Source: a candidate division WOR-3 bacterium (GTDB lineage: Bacteria; Hydrothermota; Hydrothermia; LBFQ01). From it: a stretch of DNA of 64,000 bases. The notes beneath the pieces were generated by a model. It searched no databases. It worked only from the letters and a program-made list of their open reading frames with translations, and was not told the DNA's origin. Made by a program: the position numbers and the translations under genes. This document shows, one piece after another, positions 37,473 through 44,325 of the stretch. Position 1 is the stretch's first letter; each line of letters opens with the position of its first letter. The stretch lies in assembly GCA_027003075.1 (NCBI GenBank), contig JALWYV010000005.1, positions 23,198-87,197 of the forward strand, given 5' to 3'.

Positions 37473-37902
37473 TTTCCAACCTCTTTTTAAAAGACTTCAG
37501 TACTCCCATCACGAAGGACGGGGACTTCTCCGCGGAAAAGCGCTTCGCGAACGTGCCGTAGTCGTAGATGGTCCGGTTCACGTCATCGGCACCCTTCAAT
37601 ATCTCGGCCATTCCGGCAAGTATAGCCGCCCTGTCAAGGGCGAGCAACCTCTCGGGTCTCCATCCCGTCAGGGTATCGGATAGGTGCCCGTATAGGGCGT
37701 CCTCGTTCCGAAGGTAGAACTCTATAAGATCCCTCAGCCTGTCCACCTCCTCCGGGGATAGATCCTCCCTCTCCCTTACGTCGCTAAGGAAACTTTCAGG
37801 ATCCTCCTCGTTGCTCTCGTACCTGTAGATGTACTCCGCGAATAGGCTCCGCACCACCTCCTGAGGGGTCTTGAACATATCGCGGTAAAGTCGTTTATCC
37901 AT
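37459..37902 (-). CDS. nusB: Transcription antitermination factor NusB
   Basis: GWRPERLLALDRAAIL, AKRFSAEKSPSFVMGVL. Confidence 0.8.
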   Translation of the reverse strand: MDKRLYRDMFKTPQEVVRSLFAEYIYRYESNEEDPESFLSDVREREDLSPEEVDRLRDLIEFYLRNEDALYGHLSDTLTGWRPERLLALDRAAILAGMAEILKGADDVNRTIYDYGTFAKRFSAEKSPSFVMGVLKSFKKRLESGKE

Positions 37903-39286
37903 CTTTCCTCCAGTCTTCTACTATCTTTGCCGCTTTTACAAAGAACGAAGGTGAAACGGAGAACCTGCGAAATCCAAGAGACAGCAGGAAACGGAGCCCA
38001 TCCTCGTCGGATGCGAGCTGTCCGCATACGCTTACGGGTCTTCGGGAGTTATTGAGTACGTGTCTGAGGAGGTCACCGAATACCGGGTTTACCTGTTCTT
38101 TTATGTCGCTCGTACCCCTCTCCCTTCCCGTGAAAAAGGCCCAGAGGTCGTTCGTCCCCACCGAGAAGAAGGTAGCGTAATCGTTCACCCCGGATATGCT
38201 CCATGCAAACGAAGGGACCTCAACCATGAAACCTAAGTGTTCTATCCCCTTTGAGGTTACGTAGTCGTAGAAGGTTCGGGCGGTGTCGGGGAAGTCTACC
38301 ATGGGTATCATTATACGGAAGTTCGGATACCTTTTTACGATTTCCAGAAGGGAATCAAACTTCTCCCTGAGGTCGTTCAGGAGCCTCATGGCCCCCCTCG
38401 TCCCGTGGTACTTCTCGCCCCCAACGTCGTACGCTCTGATTATTACGGGGGCATTGAGGCGGGCGAACCTCTCCCAGTCCACCCGTCCCAGATCCACGTT
38501 CAGGAGGTACTCCGTTCGCAGCAAACCCACGCCCGTTTCGTACCTCTCCGCCCAGAACACGTCCTCCGGGATGTCAAGATTAAGAAGTATCTCCACCTCC
38601 TCACCGTCGGCCGTCAGGAAGATTCTCCCCTTCCTTATGTGTTCCTGTCTGTCAAAGGTATCTATGGGTTTACGGGAGACGATCCCGGCCTCCCCATCAA
38701 CGTAAACGACCTCGCCGTTCCTGAACTTCGTGGGATCTATTCCCACAACTGTAGGTATATGGGCGTTAGCGAGGATTATGGCCGCGTGGGAGTCAGATGA
38801 AAGTTCCTTCAGGACCACGGCCGCCACCTTTCTGGTTTTTAGTTTGAGGGCTAGGGGGATGCTTACGCTCTCGGCCACGAAAACGGTGTCCTCGTTTATG
38901 GGAAGGTCAAGGGTGCCGTTATGGAGTATATCGTGTATTATCTGTACTATCTCCTGAGCCTTGCGGGCGAAGAAGGGGTCAGCGGATCTCATCCTCTCAA
39001 CTAAGGGTCTCAGGGCTATGTCAACGGCCTCCTTTTCGGATACACCGAGGTCAAGACAGGTTTTAAGCCTCTTTCTGAACGTCGGGTCGGTGATTATCAG
39101 CCGTACGAACTGGGCGAAGACGTCCTCCTTTTCCCTCTCAAGATCACCGGCTATGCGATCCAGCACACCTAAGAAATCTTCCTCTATTCGGGAGGGAGTG
39201 GCGAAAACGAAGACCCTCCCCTTCGCCCTTCCCGGCACCAGTCCAACGCCTGTAAGTACTTCGTCAGTCCCTGTGCTATTCCTCAT
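37895..39286 (-). CDS. ptsI: PTS enzyme I (shortened)
   Basis: DSHAAI phospho-His, GVGLLRTE, IMIPMV, MVEVPS, FFSVGTNDL, VSVCG. Confidence 0.85.
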   Translation of the reverse strand: MRNSTGTDEVLTGVGLVPGRAKGRVFVFATPSRIEEDFLGVLDRIAGDLEREKEDVFAQFVRLIITDPTFRKRLKTCLDLGVSEKEAVDIALRPLVERMRSADPFFARKAQEIVQIIHDILHNGTLDLPINEDTVFVAESVSIPLALKLKTRKVAAVVLKELSSDSHAAIILANAHIPTVVGIDPTKFRNGEVVYVDGEAGIVSRKPIDTFDRQEHIRKGRIFLTADGEEVEILLNLDIPEDVFWAERYETGVGLLRTEYLLNVDLGRVDWERFARLNAPVIIRAYDVGGEKYHGTRGAMRLLNDLREKFDSLLEIVKRYPNFRIMIPMVDFPDTARTFYDYVTSKGIEHLGFMVEVPSFAWSISGVNDYATFFSVGTNDLWAFFTGRERGTSDIKEQVNPVFGDLLRHVLNNSRRPVSVCGQLASDEDGLRFLLSLGFRRFSVSPSFFVKAAKIVEDWRKDG

Positions 39287-39566
39287 TGAACTTTACCACC
39301 TCTATTAAATGGGCAAGTGCCTCAACGGCTTCCTCCGCGTCCGGACCCTCGGCCTCAATTACGAGTTCCGTTCCCATGGGTGCGGTAAGCATCATTACAC
39401 CGAATACGCTCTTGGCGTTCACCTTCATCCTGGAACCGTCCGCTTCCTCCTTTATCAAAAAAATGTCGCTCTCAAACTGCCCCGCCAGAGAGGAAATAAG
39501 CGTACTCGGCCGGGCGTGCAACCCCAACTTGTTCCTCAACCTTACTTTTCTTACGACTTTACTCAC
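39276..39566 (-). CDS. ptsH: HPr phosphocarrier
   Basis: NKLGLHARP, NAKSVFGVMML, AEGPDAEEA. Confidence 0.95.
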   Translation of the reverse strand: MSKVVRKVRLRNKLGLHARPSTLISSLAGQFESDIFLIKEEADGSRMKVNAKSVFGVMMLTAPMGTELVIEAEGPDAEEAVEALAHLIEVVKFNEE

Positions 39567-39603: not shown

Positions 39604-40272
39604 TCAAAGGGGGTATATCCTGTGCCACATCGTGAAGGTCCTTCCGTCGCCCGAGACTATACCGACGTCTCCGGATCGCACAACGGTCTTTACCCGGTTT
39701 AAGCCATGGCGGAGGAGGAAGTCGGCGGCGCTTGAGAGGGTTCCCGTGGCACACCCCATCGGCTCCTCTGGATAACCGTACTCCCACGTCCTGACGAAGA
39801 GGGAGTTGCCCACGAGGGTGTAGACGTTAGTATGGTACGGCATCCCCCCCTTCACCGTGGCCCGGTAGAATTCCCTGAGGGGAAAGTCCTCCATTCTCCC
39901 CACGACAGGTACGACCAGATGTTTTACCCCCTCCATCTCAACGAGGGTGTGATCCCCTCTAATGTTAACCTTCAGATCAAGGGTTATGCCGACGTAATCG
40001 CCCCGGACCTTTACCACTTTGGGGCCGTGGGCATCAACCACGGTCTCCCCGTCCCTACCGTTGAGGCCGAGGTATCCCACCACCCGTGTGGCGTTCCCAC
40101 AGAAGGGTACCCTATTGCTCAGGTAATTGAAGTAGTAGAGTTCCGTAGTCCTTTCCTTTTTGATGTACACCCATCCGTTGAAACCTTCCGGCAACTCCGG
40201 AAAACGTGCAGGATCCGGTTCTCCAGACCCCTTAACTACGAGGAACCTATCTCCACCGATGGATACCTTCAT
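39604..40272 (-). CDS. dapF: Diaminopimelate epimerase-like protein (short, divergent)
   Basis: PFCGNATRVV, VRTWEYG..EPMGCATG. Confidence 0.75.
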   Translation of the reverse strand: MKVSIGGDRFLVVKGSGEPDPARFPELPEGFNGWVYIKKERTTELYYFNYLSNRVPFCGNATRVVGYLGLNGRDGETVVDAHGPKVVKVRGDYVGITLDLKVNIRGDHTLVEMEGVKHLVVPVVGRMEDFPLREFYRATVKGGMPYHTNVYTLVGNSLFVRTWEYGYPEEPMGCATGTLSSAADFLLRHGLNRVKTVVRSGDVGIVSGDGRTFTMWHRIYPL

Positions 40273-40529: not shown

Positions 40530-40530
40530 G

Positions 40531-40614
40531 TGCCGGGAGTGGGACTCGAACCCACACGGGGATTACCCCGGGGGATTTTAAATCCCCTGCGTCTACCGAT
40601 TCCGCCATCCCGGC
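40531..40614 (-). tRNA. tRNA-Leu(TAA), CCA not encoded
   Basis: GCCGGGATGGCGGAATCGGTAGACGCA-GGGGA-TTTAAAA-TCCCC, long variable arm, GGTTCGAGTCCCACTCCCGGCA. Confidence 0.95.
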
Positions 40615-40663
40615 AAGGACTATATTTTAAAGTGGTCGGGTACGCAAATTGGTCATAGGATCG

Positions 40664-41839
40664 TTATGGTAGATGTAAAAGTGGACTTGAGGACCCTCTT
40701 TCGTAGAATTCTCGTTTGAAATATTCTTCCTCAACGTCGTTGGTAGGCAGATATATCTCTACAGGGATTTTTAAATTCTTTAAATAATGGTACATAAGAG
40801 GACCAACGTCTTTCCATTTCAGACCACCCAGTCCACAACCAAGGGCAGGAAAGGCTATGGATTTAACACCGTATTCCTCGTAATGCTTCACAAACCATTT
40901 TAATCCCTTTTCTATAACCTCCAATTTACTTTTTTCCCTCCAGTGACCTTTGGTAGGGAAGAATAAAAAACCTCTATCCTCCGTCATATAAAAGGCGGGA
41001 CGTCCGGGTACTAGCAACTTTGACTTTACCATATCCTGATATGCCACGTACGCGGCCGGATACATGTACTTGAACCTACTCGCTAACCCCTTACCCATTA
41101 CACCAACAGTGTTAACACTTATTGTTAAAGTATGCATTTCACTTATAAACATATCCCCATGGACTATATAAAGTCCATCGGCAATTTCCACCTTTCTTAG
41201 GGGGAGGAAAAACATATCGGGCTCCACAGATACGGACAACTTCCCGGACACCAAGTTGATTTCACGCAAAAGATCATTATTAGGAACATATATGGCTTTT
41301 ATGTACTTTTTAGGAACACGTCGGGGAACCAGAATTTCGGACTGCAAAAACTTTTTGGGTTCCATATAGTAGCCGTAATATCTCTTGCGATAAGCGGATT
41401 CTCTTTTGAAAACCTTCCAGATAGGTACACTTGAAGCTTCTGAAACCCAATCCCTTACACTTCGTACAAGTTTTAGAAATCTTGTAAAATCTATTTCAGA
41501 CGGTGGAACTGTTATAGAACTATCGCTGGCGGCATTTCCTACAGATACAAGGACACCCCGCAATTTCAGGATATCCCCACTTATCCCCAACACAACAATT
41601 TTCCATCCCATCTTTAACACCATATACATCATAGCATTACGGCTACTCACATAAAGGTTGGCATAGCTCGTAAGCCCCTTTTCCCTCCTTTTCTCTACTA
41701 TATCTTCTTTACTGATGCGTTTAAAATCCAATCCTCTACGGTTAACCTCGTCGTTTGAGAGTATGCCGAACCGTAGAATAGAGTTAAGATTCTTAACCGG
41801 TGTGATATAGTAAAATTCCAGTTCTCGTCCCTTAGTCAT
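40664..41839 (-). CDS. DarT (DUF4433) DNA ADP-ribosyltransferase fused to a DarG-type macrodomain
   Basis: N-terminal FYYIT..NL.SIL..GILS, KRR, YANLY..RNAMMY, GNAAS, QSEILV; C-terminal GDMF, SVNTVGVMGKGLA, FPTKGHWR, SIAFPALGCGLGGLKW; AT-rich. Confidence 0.88.
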   Translation of the reverse strand: MTKGRELEFYYITPVKNLNSILRFGILSNDEVNRRGLDFKRISKEDIVEKRREKGLTSYANLYVSSRNAMMYMVLKMGWKIVVLGISGDILKLRGVLVSVGNAASDSSITVPPSEIDFTRFLKLVRSVRDWVSEASSVPIWKVFKRESAYRKRYYGYYMEPKKFLQSEILVPRRVPKKYIKAIYVPNNDLLREINLVSGKLSVSVEPDMFFLPLRKVEIADGLYIVHGDMFISEMHTLTISVNTVGVMGKGLASRFKYMYPAAYVAYQDMVKSKLLVPGRPAFYMTEDRGFLFFPTKGHWREKSKLEVIEKGLKWFVKHYEEYGVKSIAFPALGCGLGGLKWKDVGPLMYHYLKNLKIPVEIYLPTNDVEEEYFKREFYERGSSSPLLHLP

Positions 41840-43754
41840 CCACCTCCCTCCTCATCCTCTCTATCAGCTCCTCCACCTTCATGGCCCCCAGGTCCCCTTC
41901 TTTTCTCCGCCTAACGGAGACGGTACCGCTCTCAACCTCCCTCTTTCCGACGACCAGGATGTAGGGGACCTTCTGGGTCTCGGCGTCCCTTATCTTGTAG
42001 GAGAGCCTCTCGTTCCGGTCGTCTATCTCCACCCTGAAGCCAGCCTCCTCAAGCCGCTCCTTTACGCTCCGGGCGTACTCCGCGAAGGCGTCCTTTATGG
42101 GTATCACCCTCGCCTGTACGGGGGCCAGCCATAATGGGAAGTCCCCGGCGTAATGTTCTATCAGAATACCGAAGAACCTCTCTATGGATCCGAGGATCGC
42201 CCTGTGTATCATTACGACGAAATGCTCCTTACCGTCGGGGCCTACGTACGTGGCGTTGAACCGCCTGGGCAGGTTGAAGTCCACCTGTACGGTCGTACAC
42301 TGCCACCTCCGGCCGAGGGCATCCTTGAGCTTGACGTCAATTTTGGGGCCGTAGAAGGCGGCCTCCCCCTCCTCAACCTCGTAGGAGAAGCCCTCCGCCT
42401 CAAGGGCGTTCTTTAGGGAGTTTATGGCCTGCTTCCACATCTGGGGGGTCCCCATGTACTCCTCCGGTCTGTTGGGGTCCCATATGGACAGTTCCACCTC
42501 AAAGTCCTTAAAGCCGAAGCGGCCGAGGATCCTCTTCATCAAGGCGAGGACCCGCCTAACCTCCTCCTCCACCTGATCCGGGGCGGCGAAGATGTGGGCG
42601 TCGTCCTGGGTGAAGCCCCTGACCCTCATCAGGCCGTGGAGGACGCCGGACAGCTCGTAGCGATACACCGTCCCCAGCTCGGCGAGCCTTACGGGGAGGT
42701 CCCGGTAGCTATGCACCTTTGACTTGTATATGAGGATGTGGGCGGGACAGTTCATGGGCTTGACGGCGTAGGTCTGCCCGTCCTTCTCAAAGACGAACAT
42801 GTTCTTCTGGTAGTAGTTGAGGTGGCCGCTTATCTCCCAGAGTTTCCCGGAGAGGACGTGGGGGGTGATGACGAAGGTGTAGCCGTCTTTTATATGCTCC
42901 CGCTTGATGTAGTCCTCAATCGCAAAGCGCACAGCCGTCCCCTTTGGGTGCCAGAAGACGAAGCCTGCCCCCGCCTCCTCGTAGAAGTTGAAGAGATCCA
43001 GCTGGCGACCCAGTACCCTGTGATCCCTCTTCTTCGCCTCCTCAAGCATCTTCAGGTACTCGTCTAACTGCTCCTGTGTCGGGAAGGATACGCCGTAGAT
43101 CCTCTGGAGGGAGGGGTTGTTGGGGTCTCCCTTCCAGTAGGCGGAGGATACGGTCGTAACCTTGAAGGCTCCTATGACCCCCGTCCGATGTATATGGGGA
43201 CCCCTACACAGGTCAGTGAACTCCCCCTGATGGTAGACGGAGACGACCGGCTCACCGAACTCCTCTATCAGGAGGACCTTGTAGTCCTCCCCCCTCTCCC
43301 TGAAGAACTCCTTGGCCTTTTCGGCCGGCCACTCCTCCCGCTTTACGGGGTAATCCGCCTCAATTACCTTCTTCGCCTCCTCCTCAATCCTCTGGAGGTC
43401 CTCCGGCGTCAGGGTCCGGCCCCCGAAGTCTATGTCGTAGAAGAAACCGTTCTCTATGGGAGGGCCGACGGTGAGCTTGGCGTCGGGCCACAGCCTCTTG
43501 ACCGCCTGAGCCAGTACGTGGGCGGAGGAGTGCCAGAAGACCTCCTTCCCGTCCCTGTCGCTGAAGTCCAGAATGTCAATCTCGGAGACGTCCTCCGGTA
43601 TCGGGACGAAGAGGTCAAAGAGCCGTCCGCCCGCACGGGCGACGAAGCCCCCCTTCAGCCCCTCTTCGCCGAGGACGTCAAGTACGCTTTGCCCTTCTTT
43701 TACTTCCTTTTCAACCTTACTTCCGTCGGGGAGATGAAAGATTACCCTTCTCAC
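41832..43754 (-). CDS. thrS: Threonine--tRNA ligase
   Basis: FWHSSAH, DLCRGPH, KPMNCPAH, RVRGFTQDDAH, AAFYGPKID; likely start GTG 43754 (TAAAAT 7 nt upstream). Confidence 0.98.
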   Translation of the reverse strand: MRRVIFHLPDGSKVEKEVKEGQSVLDVLGEEGLKGGFVARAGGRLFDLFVPIPEDVSEIDILDFSDRDGKEVFWHSSAHVLAQAVKRLWPDAKLTVGPPIENGFFYDIDFGGRTLTPEDLQRIEEEAKKVIEADYPVKREEWPAEKAKEFFRERGEDYKVLLIEEFGEPVVSVYHQGEFTDLCRGPHIHRTGVIGAFKVTTVSSAYWKGDPNNPSLQRIYGVSFPTQEQLDEYLKMLEEAKKRDHRVLGRQLDLFNFYEEAGAGFVFWHPKGTAVRFAIEDYIKREHIKDGYTFVITPHVLSGKLWEISGHLNYYQKNMFVFEKDGQTYAVKPMNCPAHILIYKSKVHSYRDLPVRLAELGTVYRYELSGVLHGLMRVRGFTQDDAHIFAAPDQVEEEVRRVLALMKRILGRFGFKDFEVELSIWDPNRPEEYMGTPQMWKQAINSLKNALEAEGFSYEVEEGEAAFYGPKIDVKLKDALGRRWQCTTVQVDFNLPRRFNATYVGPDGKEHFVVMIHRAILGSIERFFGILIEHYAGDFPLWLAPVQARVIPIKDAFAEYARSVKERLEEAGFRVEIDDRNERLSYKIRDAETQKVPYILVVGKREVESGTVSVRRRKEGDLGAMKVEELIERMRREVDD

Positions 43755-43884
43755 GGGGGCTATTTTACGGTCGGCCGTTCCCGTCTGTTTAATTGACGCC
43801 ATGCTGAATAAAGGAAGGCGTTTAAACGGCCGAAAAATGCAATTCGGGTGAGGTGTACGTATGAGCCCTAATCTGAATTAAAAT

Positions 43885-44325
43885 ATGCGATGTATGGAAA
43901 TAAAGGATAGATGGTGGGAAAAGACAAAGTGGGGGGAAATTGAGCCTCCGGATAAGCCTGAAGGATTGGATGAGTCAGGTGATGGCGTCTGGTATGGAAT
44001 ATGGGAGTTGATATATAGAGCGCAGGGGGAAGGATACCATCCAGGGAGAGTGGTGGAGTTTGTAGATGAGTTCAGGCTTCTTATGATGGGACTAACTGAC
44101 ATCGTTAATGAGGGCTACGACATAACGCAGCTGGAAATCTACCCCATATTTGAATACGTGATGCTCAGGTGGGCGGAGTTAGTTAAAGCCGGGAAGTGTG
44201 GGTGGATAACGCTTGAAGATGCGAAAGCTAACTATTTACCTACCTACAATAAGGAACTTGTAGAGGAAATAGGCTTTCTACCCGACCGTATAACACACTG
44301 GTGGTGGTACGTGCTTGAGGACTGA
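43885..44325 (+). CDS. Hypothetical acidic, Trp-rich protein (AT-richer than flanks)
   Basis: 146-aa ORF ending PDRITHWWWYVLED; start may be ATG 43894. Confidence 0.6.
   Translation: MRCMEIKDRWWEKTKWGEIEPPDKPEGLDESGDGVWYGIWELIYRAQGEGYHPGRVVEFVDEFRLLMMGLTDIVNEGYDITQLEIYPIFEYVMLRWAELVKAGKCGWITLEDAKANYLPTYNKELVEEIGFLPDRITHWWWYVLED

Follow-up and report, generated by a model that had tools for sequence, protein, structure and literature searches.

DarT ADP-ribosyltransferases are described with two kinds of partner. In DarTG2 (Thermus aquaticus and Thermus sp. 2.9, Mycobacterium tuberculosis, enteropathogenic Escherichia coli), a darT gene is followed by a darG gene, whose product joins a macrodomain to a C-terminal domain; an excerpt of PMC11543638 gives K80 as the catalytic lysine of DarG and the C-terminal domain as the part that binds and neutralises DarT2. 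In DarTG1, the guanosine-specific DarT1 is paired with a NADAR antitoxin. Both domains of a DarTG have also been solved on a single chain, as PDB 7OMU, 'Thermosipho africanus DarTG in complex with ADP-ribose', released on 2021-06-23. We analyzed a stretch of 64,000 nucleotides from a candidate division WOR-3 bacterium (assembly GCA_027003075.1, contig JALWYV010000005.1, positions 23,198 to 87,197 of the forward strand), which we call the window. It carries a gene for a single-chain DarTG of 391 residues, a DarT domain fused to a DarG-type macrodomain, between the threonine-tRNA ligase gene thrS and a tRNA-Leu gene. The original prediction, made from the sequence of the window, had placed the gene correctly between these two neighbors and had presented the fusion as novel. 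The novelty does not hold, because the 2021 crystal structure matches both domains and the architecture is common. The window gene is a new member of a known, widespread and structurally solved fused family.

We compared the window protein with the solved structures. The best PDB match was the 7OMU chain (7omu_AAA, 406 residues): residues 7-366 aligned with residues 24-389 of the chain at E 3.7e-75, and by profile the match reached E 2.8e-146. An AlphaFold2 model, built without templates from a 19-sequence alignment (pLDDT 89.9, pTM 0.81), fitted the same chain over 400 columns (TM 0.84/0.88, root-mean-square deviation 1.9), which suggests that the two domains keep the same relative arrangement. 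In the ranking of structure matches, 7omu was followed by the DarG macrodomains of T. aquaticus and M. tuberculosis and then by human TARG1; DarT of M. tuberculosis, Thermus sp. 2.9 and E. coli C7 came below TARG1. With 7OMU the window protein shares the single chain, a similar length, the collinear order of both domains, a Y-Y start motif (ELYYITH), GNAAS, FPTK and GCGLGG. It differs in sequence (38% identity), in residue 14, which is Pro here but His in 7OMU and most of the clade, and in an insertion of ∼25 residues at 135-160 that is common only to its closest relatives (from Thermotogota and Aquificota metagenome-assembled genomes, MAGs). At the segment of the catalytic glutamate the crystallized chain reads MAACLVP, whereas a natural Thermosipho orthologue (L047) reads MAECLVP. 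Thus, 7OMU is an engineered Glu-to-Ala construct. The entry probably belongs to Schuller et al. 2021 (Nature). A literature search over the main text of papers found no discussion of a natural DarT-DarG fusion or of 7OMU.

The reading frame opens with an ATG and runs through all 391 codons without an internal stop. Translation bore out this point of the original prediction, and every motif that it quoted is present: FYYIT (9-13), KRR (50-52), YANLY (59-63), RNAMMY (67-72), GNAAS (101-105) and QSEILV (166-171) in the DarT half, NTVGVMGKG (243-251), FPTKGHW (294-300) and PALGCGLGG (331-339) in the macrodomain. A fused frame of this kind may arise artificially, if an assembly or sequencing error merges adjacent darT and short darG genes. 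Canonical two-gene pairs do exist. Among 116 matching plasmid records, only four cover at least 80% of the query, and the two that we inspected (AP029160.1 77015-78694 and NZ_CP030864.1 540710-542461) are two-gene pairs of darT (211-214 residues) and darG (344-357 residues), 9-33 nucleotides apart. Because tblastn aligns the fused query across each pair in one frame, a natural fusion could come about if the stop codon between the genes and the C-terminal domain were both lost. Yet contigs from four public runs in three studies cross the window gene without insertions or deletions. Run X1 is possibly the source sample and was not counted as independent. Two independent contigs span the whole gene: record 15 of run X2 covers 40616-41868 with 2 differences and 0 gaps, and record 26 of run X4 covers 40530-42000 with 51 substitutions and 0 gaps. 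The copy in the same-genus genome G002, 97% identical and in the same place, also has an open frame without stops. A crystal structure of a fused homologue exists, and one frame matches the query in each of the 80 loci kept from our survey (see below). The stop or frameshift that had been named as the test of the fusion is thus absent both from the independent contigs and from G002, and the artefact reading, to which we assign a negligible probability, is already refuted.

The N-terminal half was confirmed as a DarT domain by hidden Markov model (HMM) search and by predicted fold. Pfam DarT (PF14487, DUF4433) matched it with 97.1 bits against a cut-off of 22.5, over the full profile (positions 1-201 of 201). 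Foldseek of the predicted model recovered the ADP-ribosyltransferase fold in 7omv (E 1.9e-9, TMt 0.66), 7yk3 (E 1.1e-9) and 8baq (E 7.2e-9), each at probability 1.00. The sequence is distant from described DarTs. A single-sequence search of the PDB with this half found only 7omu, with DarT1 at E 0.42, and a profile of 14 N-terminal halves of the fused clade was needed to reach the solved DarT structures. This profile scored 63 bits with Thermus DarT2, 55 bits with E. coli C7 DarT1 and 44 bits with M. tuberculosis DarT. Thus, the fused clade is about equidistant from DarT1 and DarT2.

The residues that align with known catalytic ones were then scored in a family alignment of 258 rows, ∼22-33 of which are DarG-only and hence gapped in the N-terminal half. 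E168, the putative catalytic glutamate of QSEILV in the original prediction, does align with E160 of DarT2 and, in the profile alignment, stands where the E-to-A crystal constructs carry Ala; Glu occupies this position in 227 of 236 ungapped rows. The position of R51 is Arg in 222 of 229 ungapped rows. Y63 aligns with Y71 of DarT2, the tyrosine of the H-Y-E triad, and is Tyr in 224 rows; N102 is conserved in 222 rows, and M70 aligns with the Met in the PRSPMLY segment of DarT2. An excerpt of PMC11543638 gives the roles of E160/E152, R51/R52 and Y71 in DarT. Relative to the G002 copy, the ratio of non-synonymous to synonymous rates (dN/dS) is 0.13 for the whole gene (22 synonymous and 11 non-synonymous changes) and 0.28 for the DarT half alone; the 11 non-synonymous changes are confined to the DarT half, leaving the macrodomain half without any. 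From residue conservation and dN/dS, both active sites look maintained: by alignment, the residues that match the known DarT and DarG catalytic ones are conserved and under purifying selection.

The NAD site departs from the canonical enzymes. Y11 faces the His of YHITH, FHFTH and WHFTH, and the family counts at this position are Tyr 209, His 7 and Phe 6. The triad His of the ARTD [H-Y-E] enzymes is therefore Tyr in the window protein, as it is in ∼92% of the clade. It had been proposed that the usual HxTH motif reads YITP. The His-to-Tyr part of this claim stands and extends to the clade; the Pro is a separate minority trait, found at position 14 in 29 rows, including the window protein, against His in 174. 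The target base was approached through the GNAAS motif, which aligns with TNAAS of DarT1 and also with GNAAA of M. tuberculosis DarT, a thymidine-specific enzyme. Since GNAAS resembles both, the motif does not tell the two bases apart. The attached eraser is of the DarG/TARG1 type, and a DarT2-like, thymidine-type linkage would thus be the simplest inference. With DarT1 the fused protein has the N-A-A-S motif in common, and the clade profile scores are close (55 bits, against 63 for DarT2). In contrast to DarTG1, its partner domain is a macrodomain and not NADAR, and the fused clade does not conserve D54 of DarT1, an Asp that lies two residues past the catalytic Arg. D54 is essential in DarT1 according to an excerpt of PMC11543638.

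The C-terminal half is a macrodomain of the DarG/TARG1 type (ALC1-like), matching 5m31 at E 1.2e-23, 5m3i at E 3.3e-21 and, by Foldseek, 5m3e with TMt 0.90. Pfam Macro (PF01661) matched residues 242-346 with 43.9 bits (cut-off 22), and PADLOC DarG matched residues 225-372 with 168.5 bits, only over profile positions 4-152 of 329; the NCBIfam DarG match covers positions 3-157 of 338. Because the DarG profiles match only over their first ∼150 positions, the DarG C-terminal domain is absent, confirming the earlier claim of a DarG-type macrodomain that lacks the toxin-binding domain. The window protein stops 19 residues beyond the DarG profile match, and in this short tail F378 is nearly invariant (Phe in 206 of 258 rows). 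K297 aligns with the FPTKK of T. aquaticus DarG (FPTKKHW in 5m31; the offset of the PDB-chain numbering is inferred), and its position is Lys in 256 of 258 rows.

Compared with two-gene DarTG2, the window protein thus has the DarT fold with aligned catalytic Arg, Tyr and Glu, a DarG-type macrodomain with the catalytic Lys, and a domain order that equals the operon order, darT then darG. An association with type I restriction-modification (R-M) operons in some genomes is also common to both. The differences are that it is one polypeptide, a single open reading frame (ORF) rather than separate toxin and antitoxin genes, that the DarG C-terminal domain is missing, that the NAD-site His is Tyr and that the DarT half is distant. 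A toxic or writer domain and a neutralizing or eraser domain also share one chain in the fused toxin-antitoxin CapRel(SJ46) and in the eukaryotic macro-PARPs (PARP9/14/15). The concept is alike, with no sequence relationship to the window protein. The antitoxin part of CapRel is a non-enzymatic sensor, whereas the domain attached in the window protein would be an enzyme that reverses the product.

How widespread is the fusion? The original prediction had called for an HMM search and a survey; DarT and Macro were found, and the fusion proved to be widespread across many bacterial phyla. A search of 90%-identity clusters returned 2626 proteins at E ≤ 0.001; both Pfam domains are present in 117 of the best 120, nearly all of which are 364-433 residues long. 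An exhaustive search of 50%-identity representatives gave 7613 matches at E ≤ 0.001 and 154 at E ≤ 1e-30, and beyond the ∼30th match coverage was mostly of the macrodomain only. In a scan of one genome per species, a relative was encoded in 582 of 592 candidate stretches, and locus counts refer to the best 80, which were kept. In all 80, the match to the query starts no later than residue 31 and ends no earlier than residue 365, and each has a single ORF of 325-492 residues. Chloroflexota are the most numerous; Thermotogota, Aquificota, Cyanobacteria, Planctomycetota, Bdellovibrionota, Bacteroidota, Acidobacteriota and others are also present, as are two archaeal MAGs.

Within the phylum of the window, Pfam DarT matched in 23 of 272 sampled genomes, with 13 match rows in frames of 378-431 residues against 7 in frames of 205-268 residues; a match to both halves was confirmed only for the frames of G002, G003, G004, G008, G014 and G015. 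Frames of fused size thus outnumber frames of the size of DarT alone, and what has been studied so far may be an untypical form for these lineages. The window protein was matched in 10 of 31 relatives. Stand-alone relatives of residues 1-215 were represented by one match (33% identity) among 26 candidates, in a search that needed shared 5-residue words and may therefore have missed split forms of this clade.

Matches were also present in 254 phage records. Of the 15 listed, 14 are restricted to the C-terminal, macrodomain part, and a single record of the 254, an unverified and unannotated scaffold, covers at least 80% of the query. The listed phage matches near query residues 223-365 are 38-41% identical and include jumbo phages of Pseudomonas, Erwinia and Klebsiella; Thermus phage phiMa (MH673674.1 27029-27478) is another example. 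These macrodomain-only matches fit the phage DarG-like counter-defence of PMC13309987, an excerpt of which describes a phage-encoded DarG2-like antitoxin.

Taken together, these results suggest an explanation that we consider fairly probable: the window encodes an intact fused DarT-DarG(macrodomain) protein that would act as a mobile, self-contained module for ADP-ribosylating single-stranded DNA in a reversible way, of the defence or addiction type. The N-terminal domain would transfer ADP-ribose from NAD+ onto a base in single-stranded DNA, a mark that the attached macrodomain would strip off again. Because the macrodomain would remove the mark of its own chain, net modification of host DNA should be low in a resting cell. 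It would supply only the enzymatic half of DarG antitoxin action, because the DarT-binding domain is missing. Control would come from how the two activities on the chain are balanced, with expression probably set by translational coupling to thrS, and the output would become toxic when the balance shifts, for example with abundant phage single-stranded DNA or inhibition of the macrodomain. Such a module would most likely be a mobile defence or addiction-type element.

Intramolecular neutralization, as proposed originally, seems a reasonable reading of the chain. Proteolysis, which had been put forward as one possible trigger, looks unlikely. A P-x-x-F-F motif (P207, F210, F211) is conserved where the two domains join, and this junction is predicted as a strand plus a short helix with pLDDT about 92. 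A junction that is conserved and confidently ordered, together with the 7OMU-like fit, argues against a flexible, protease-cleavable linker, and the whole-chain fit suggests a fixed domain arrangement.

We examined the surroundings of the gene. The fused ORF overlaps thrS by 8 nucleotides, its ATG lies within the last thrS codons, and a Shine-Dalgarno-like motif precedes it inside thrS (Table 1). No terminator-like site was seen between the two genes on the minus strand. The overlap, the internal motif and the lack of a terminator-like site point to joint expression, and the fused gene is probably co-transcribed with thrS and translationally coupled to it. Promoter-like matches showed no excess (6 versus 3.1 ± 1.9 in shuffled sequence). 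An element picked out by eye upstream of tRNA-Leu, TTGCGT-17-TATAGT, fails the criteria of the promoter scan and is not claimed.

The gene is foreign in base composition, as had been predicted, and clearly AT-richer than its flanks: GC is 0.407 and GC3 0.408, against 0.588 and 0.805 in thrS. On the tRNA side, the same-genus genomes G003, G005 and G006 share homology with the window only as far as 40635-40637, immediately beyond the tRNA. On the other side, thrS of G003 is 94% identical, and its homology with the window covers only 41833-43774. The DNA in between is unique to the window genome (G000) and G002 among same-genus genomes and lies at a synteny break. No direct repeats or mobility genes were found flanking the fused gene. 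Three of the six other same-genus genomes have no match: G001 (90% complete), G005 (85%) and G006 (95%). In G003 and G004 the alleles are 58-59% identical and lie directly after hsdS with a 4-nucleotide overlap; in G003 (L084, 1459-3971) a DUF3800 / PDC-M04A-like gene follows downstream, and in G004 (L085, 134-4168) hsdR does. An association of DarTG with type I R-M operons was noted in Jankevicius 2016. Two genomes of the same family carry decayed copies, one with a single in-frame TAA stop (G008:C82:1981-3096) and one with at least seven stops across three fragments (G009:C46:14361-15454). The window genome (93% complete) has a single DarT match, and its one other macrodomain gene is unrelated and on a different contig (131.9 bits on Pfam Macro). 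No conserved partner gene emerged from the 80 kept loci: true neighbour families each occur in at most 7 of them (many contigs are short), and R-M methylase or HsdS genes adjoin 4-5 loci each. Thus, the fused gene was acquired singly and has a low GC; its distribution among relatives is patchy, and some of their copies are decayed.

Several observations weigh against a defence or addiction module. Neither half reaches its NCBIfam equivalog cut-off: the DarT half scores 48.3 bits against 150 for toxin_DarT (NF048013), and the macrodomain half 160.7 bits against 250 for DarG. The change of the NAD-site His to Tyr could leave the transferase weak, altered or inactive. A fixed 1:1 stoichiometry removes the usual trigger, loss of the antitoxin, and the sequence gives no sign of another. 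The window copy adjoins housekeeping genes with no defence island, most of the 80 kept loci have housekeeping neighbours, and none of the sequencing runs listed is recorded as RNA. The individual gene adds little by itself, being a member of a common fusion that is annotated in public databases and solved in structure. Its interest lies in the mechanism: for a writer and an eraser at fixed 1:1, in a chain that lacks the DarT-binding domain, the usual toxin-antitoxin trigger is unavailable, and the literature that we searched held no account of how fused DarTG proteins are controlled or act. A wider proposal, which we put forward tentatively and hold to be rather doubtful, is that the fused proteins form a third DarT lineage, distinct in function and working as one-gene DNA-marking or anti-phage systems. 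It would be characterized by a Y-Y-E triad, the lack of the DarG C-terminal domain, a rigidly attached macrodomain and a position about equidistant from DarT1 and DarT2. Its members would be controlled by kinetic competition between writer and eraser or by a phage-sensed switch, not by antitoxin loss, and they may recognize another base or sequence than DarT2 does.

Two other explanations were weighed, and we regard each as improbable. The protein may act as an eraser only. The DarT-like half would then be inactive through the His-to-Tyr change and would serve as a recognition module for single-stranded or ADP-ribosylated DNA that delivers the macrodomain hydrolase, making the protein a repair or immunity factor that takes ADP-ribose off DNA and counters foreign DarT-type toxins. 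The Tyr found in 209 rows, against 7 with the canonical His, is in line with this idea, as is the fall of 11 out of 11 non-synonymous differences from G002 in the DarT half. Free-standing DarG-like macrodomains are also common in phages (254 matching records, 14 of the 15 listed covering the C-terminal part only), and a phage-encoded DarG2-like antitoxin is known (PMC13309987, in excerpt). Against these points, more than 95% of ungapped rows keep the residues at the positions of the catalytic Glu, the Arg and the nicotinamide-stacking Tyr; a dead enzyme would not be expected to retain them, and dN/dS of the DarT half is still 0.28. The crystallized homologue, moreover, is a Glu-to-Ala mutant, and this is the substitution used to tame active, toxic DarTs (PMC11543638, in excerpt).

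The second explanation, to which we give an equally small chance, turns the pair into a housekeeping regulator that reversibly marks the host's own single-stranded DNA, for example at the replication origin, tuning replication and growth and not serving defence. The features that couple the gene to thrS (the 8-nucleotide overlap, the Shine-Dalgarno-like motif inside thrS, no terminator-like site between the genes) imply probable expression with a growth-linked gene, and many of the 80 kept loci have housekeeping neighbours. A precedent is M. tuberculosis DarTG, where an excerpt of PMC12170906 reports control of growth and transcription by DarT. Yet the gene has no match in three of the six other same-genus genomes, two same-genus alleles are just 58-59% identical and sit elsewhere in the genome, next to type I R-M genes, G008 and G009 hold pseudogenes, and the codon composition is foreign. 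Patchy presence, divergent alleles, pseudogenes and foreign codons together speak for a gene that is accessory and exchangeable and against a core regulator.

Table 1. Features of the fused gene and its immediate surroundings (window coordinates).
Feature	Position	Strand	Basis or remark
Fused DarT-macrodomain gene (single-chain DarTG)	40664..41839	-	391 residues plus stop; ORF, Pfam DarT and Macro, full-length 7omu match
DarT ADP-ribosyltransferase domain, residues 10-211	41207..41812	-	PF14487; Foldseek 7omv; N-half profile matches 7omv, 8baq, 7yk3
Y11 codon	41807..41809	-	canonical NAD-site His position (Y-H-I-T-H in Thermus DarT)
R51 codon	41687..41689	-	aligned with DarT2 R51, DarT1 R52
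E168 codon	41336..41338	-	aligned with catalytic Glu (DarT2 E160, DarT1 E152)
DarG/TARG1-type macrodomain, residues 225-372	40724..41167	-	PADLOC DarG, 5m31 and 5m3e matches
K297 codon in FPTK	40949..40951	-	aligned with catalytic Lys of DarG (K80)
C-terminal tail, residues 373-391	40667..40723	-	conserved motif E-[YL]-[FL]-x-x-E-F-[YL]; no DarG C-terminal domain after it
GGAGG Shine-Dalgarno-like motif	41843..41847	-	within thrS 3' end, 3 nucleotides before ATG
thrS (threonine-tRNA ligase)	41832..43802	-	TIGR00418, 730.8 bits against cut-off 383.65; upstream neighbour
tRNA-Leu(TAA)	40530..40614	-	downstream neighbour
DNA without homology in same-genus G003, G005, G006	40637..41832	.	blastn end points; essentially the gene alone

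A few further observations concern the DNA around the fused gene. In runs X2 and X3, contigs break at the junction of thrS and the DarTG gene (41839-41868). Mean word depth of the thrS-side contigs was 29.7 versus 8.5 for the other contigs in X2, and 51.8 versus 15.5 in X3. Contig depth is a poor measure, and these values hint only weakly at the coexistence of strains that have and strains that lack the fused gene at this site. On the far side of thrS, an AT-richer patch (GC about 0.46-0.51) holds a 146-residue ORF at 43885-44325 on the plus strand, divergent from thrS, which had no Pfam, NCBIfam or PADLOC match. Because homology with G003 stops at 43774, this flank of thrS is non-syntenic too. 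Beyond the tRNA, a 222-residue ORF (39604-40272) has a weak, partial DapF match (27.8 bits against 114.65), and a 463-residue PtsI-like protein is encoded on the minus strand at 37895-39566 (121 bits, far under the NCBIfam cut-off of 341.7, and matching only from profile position 61 onward). An HPr-sized ORF of 96 residues adjoins the PtsI-like gene.

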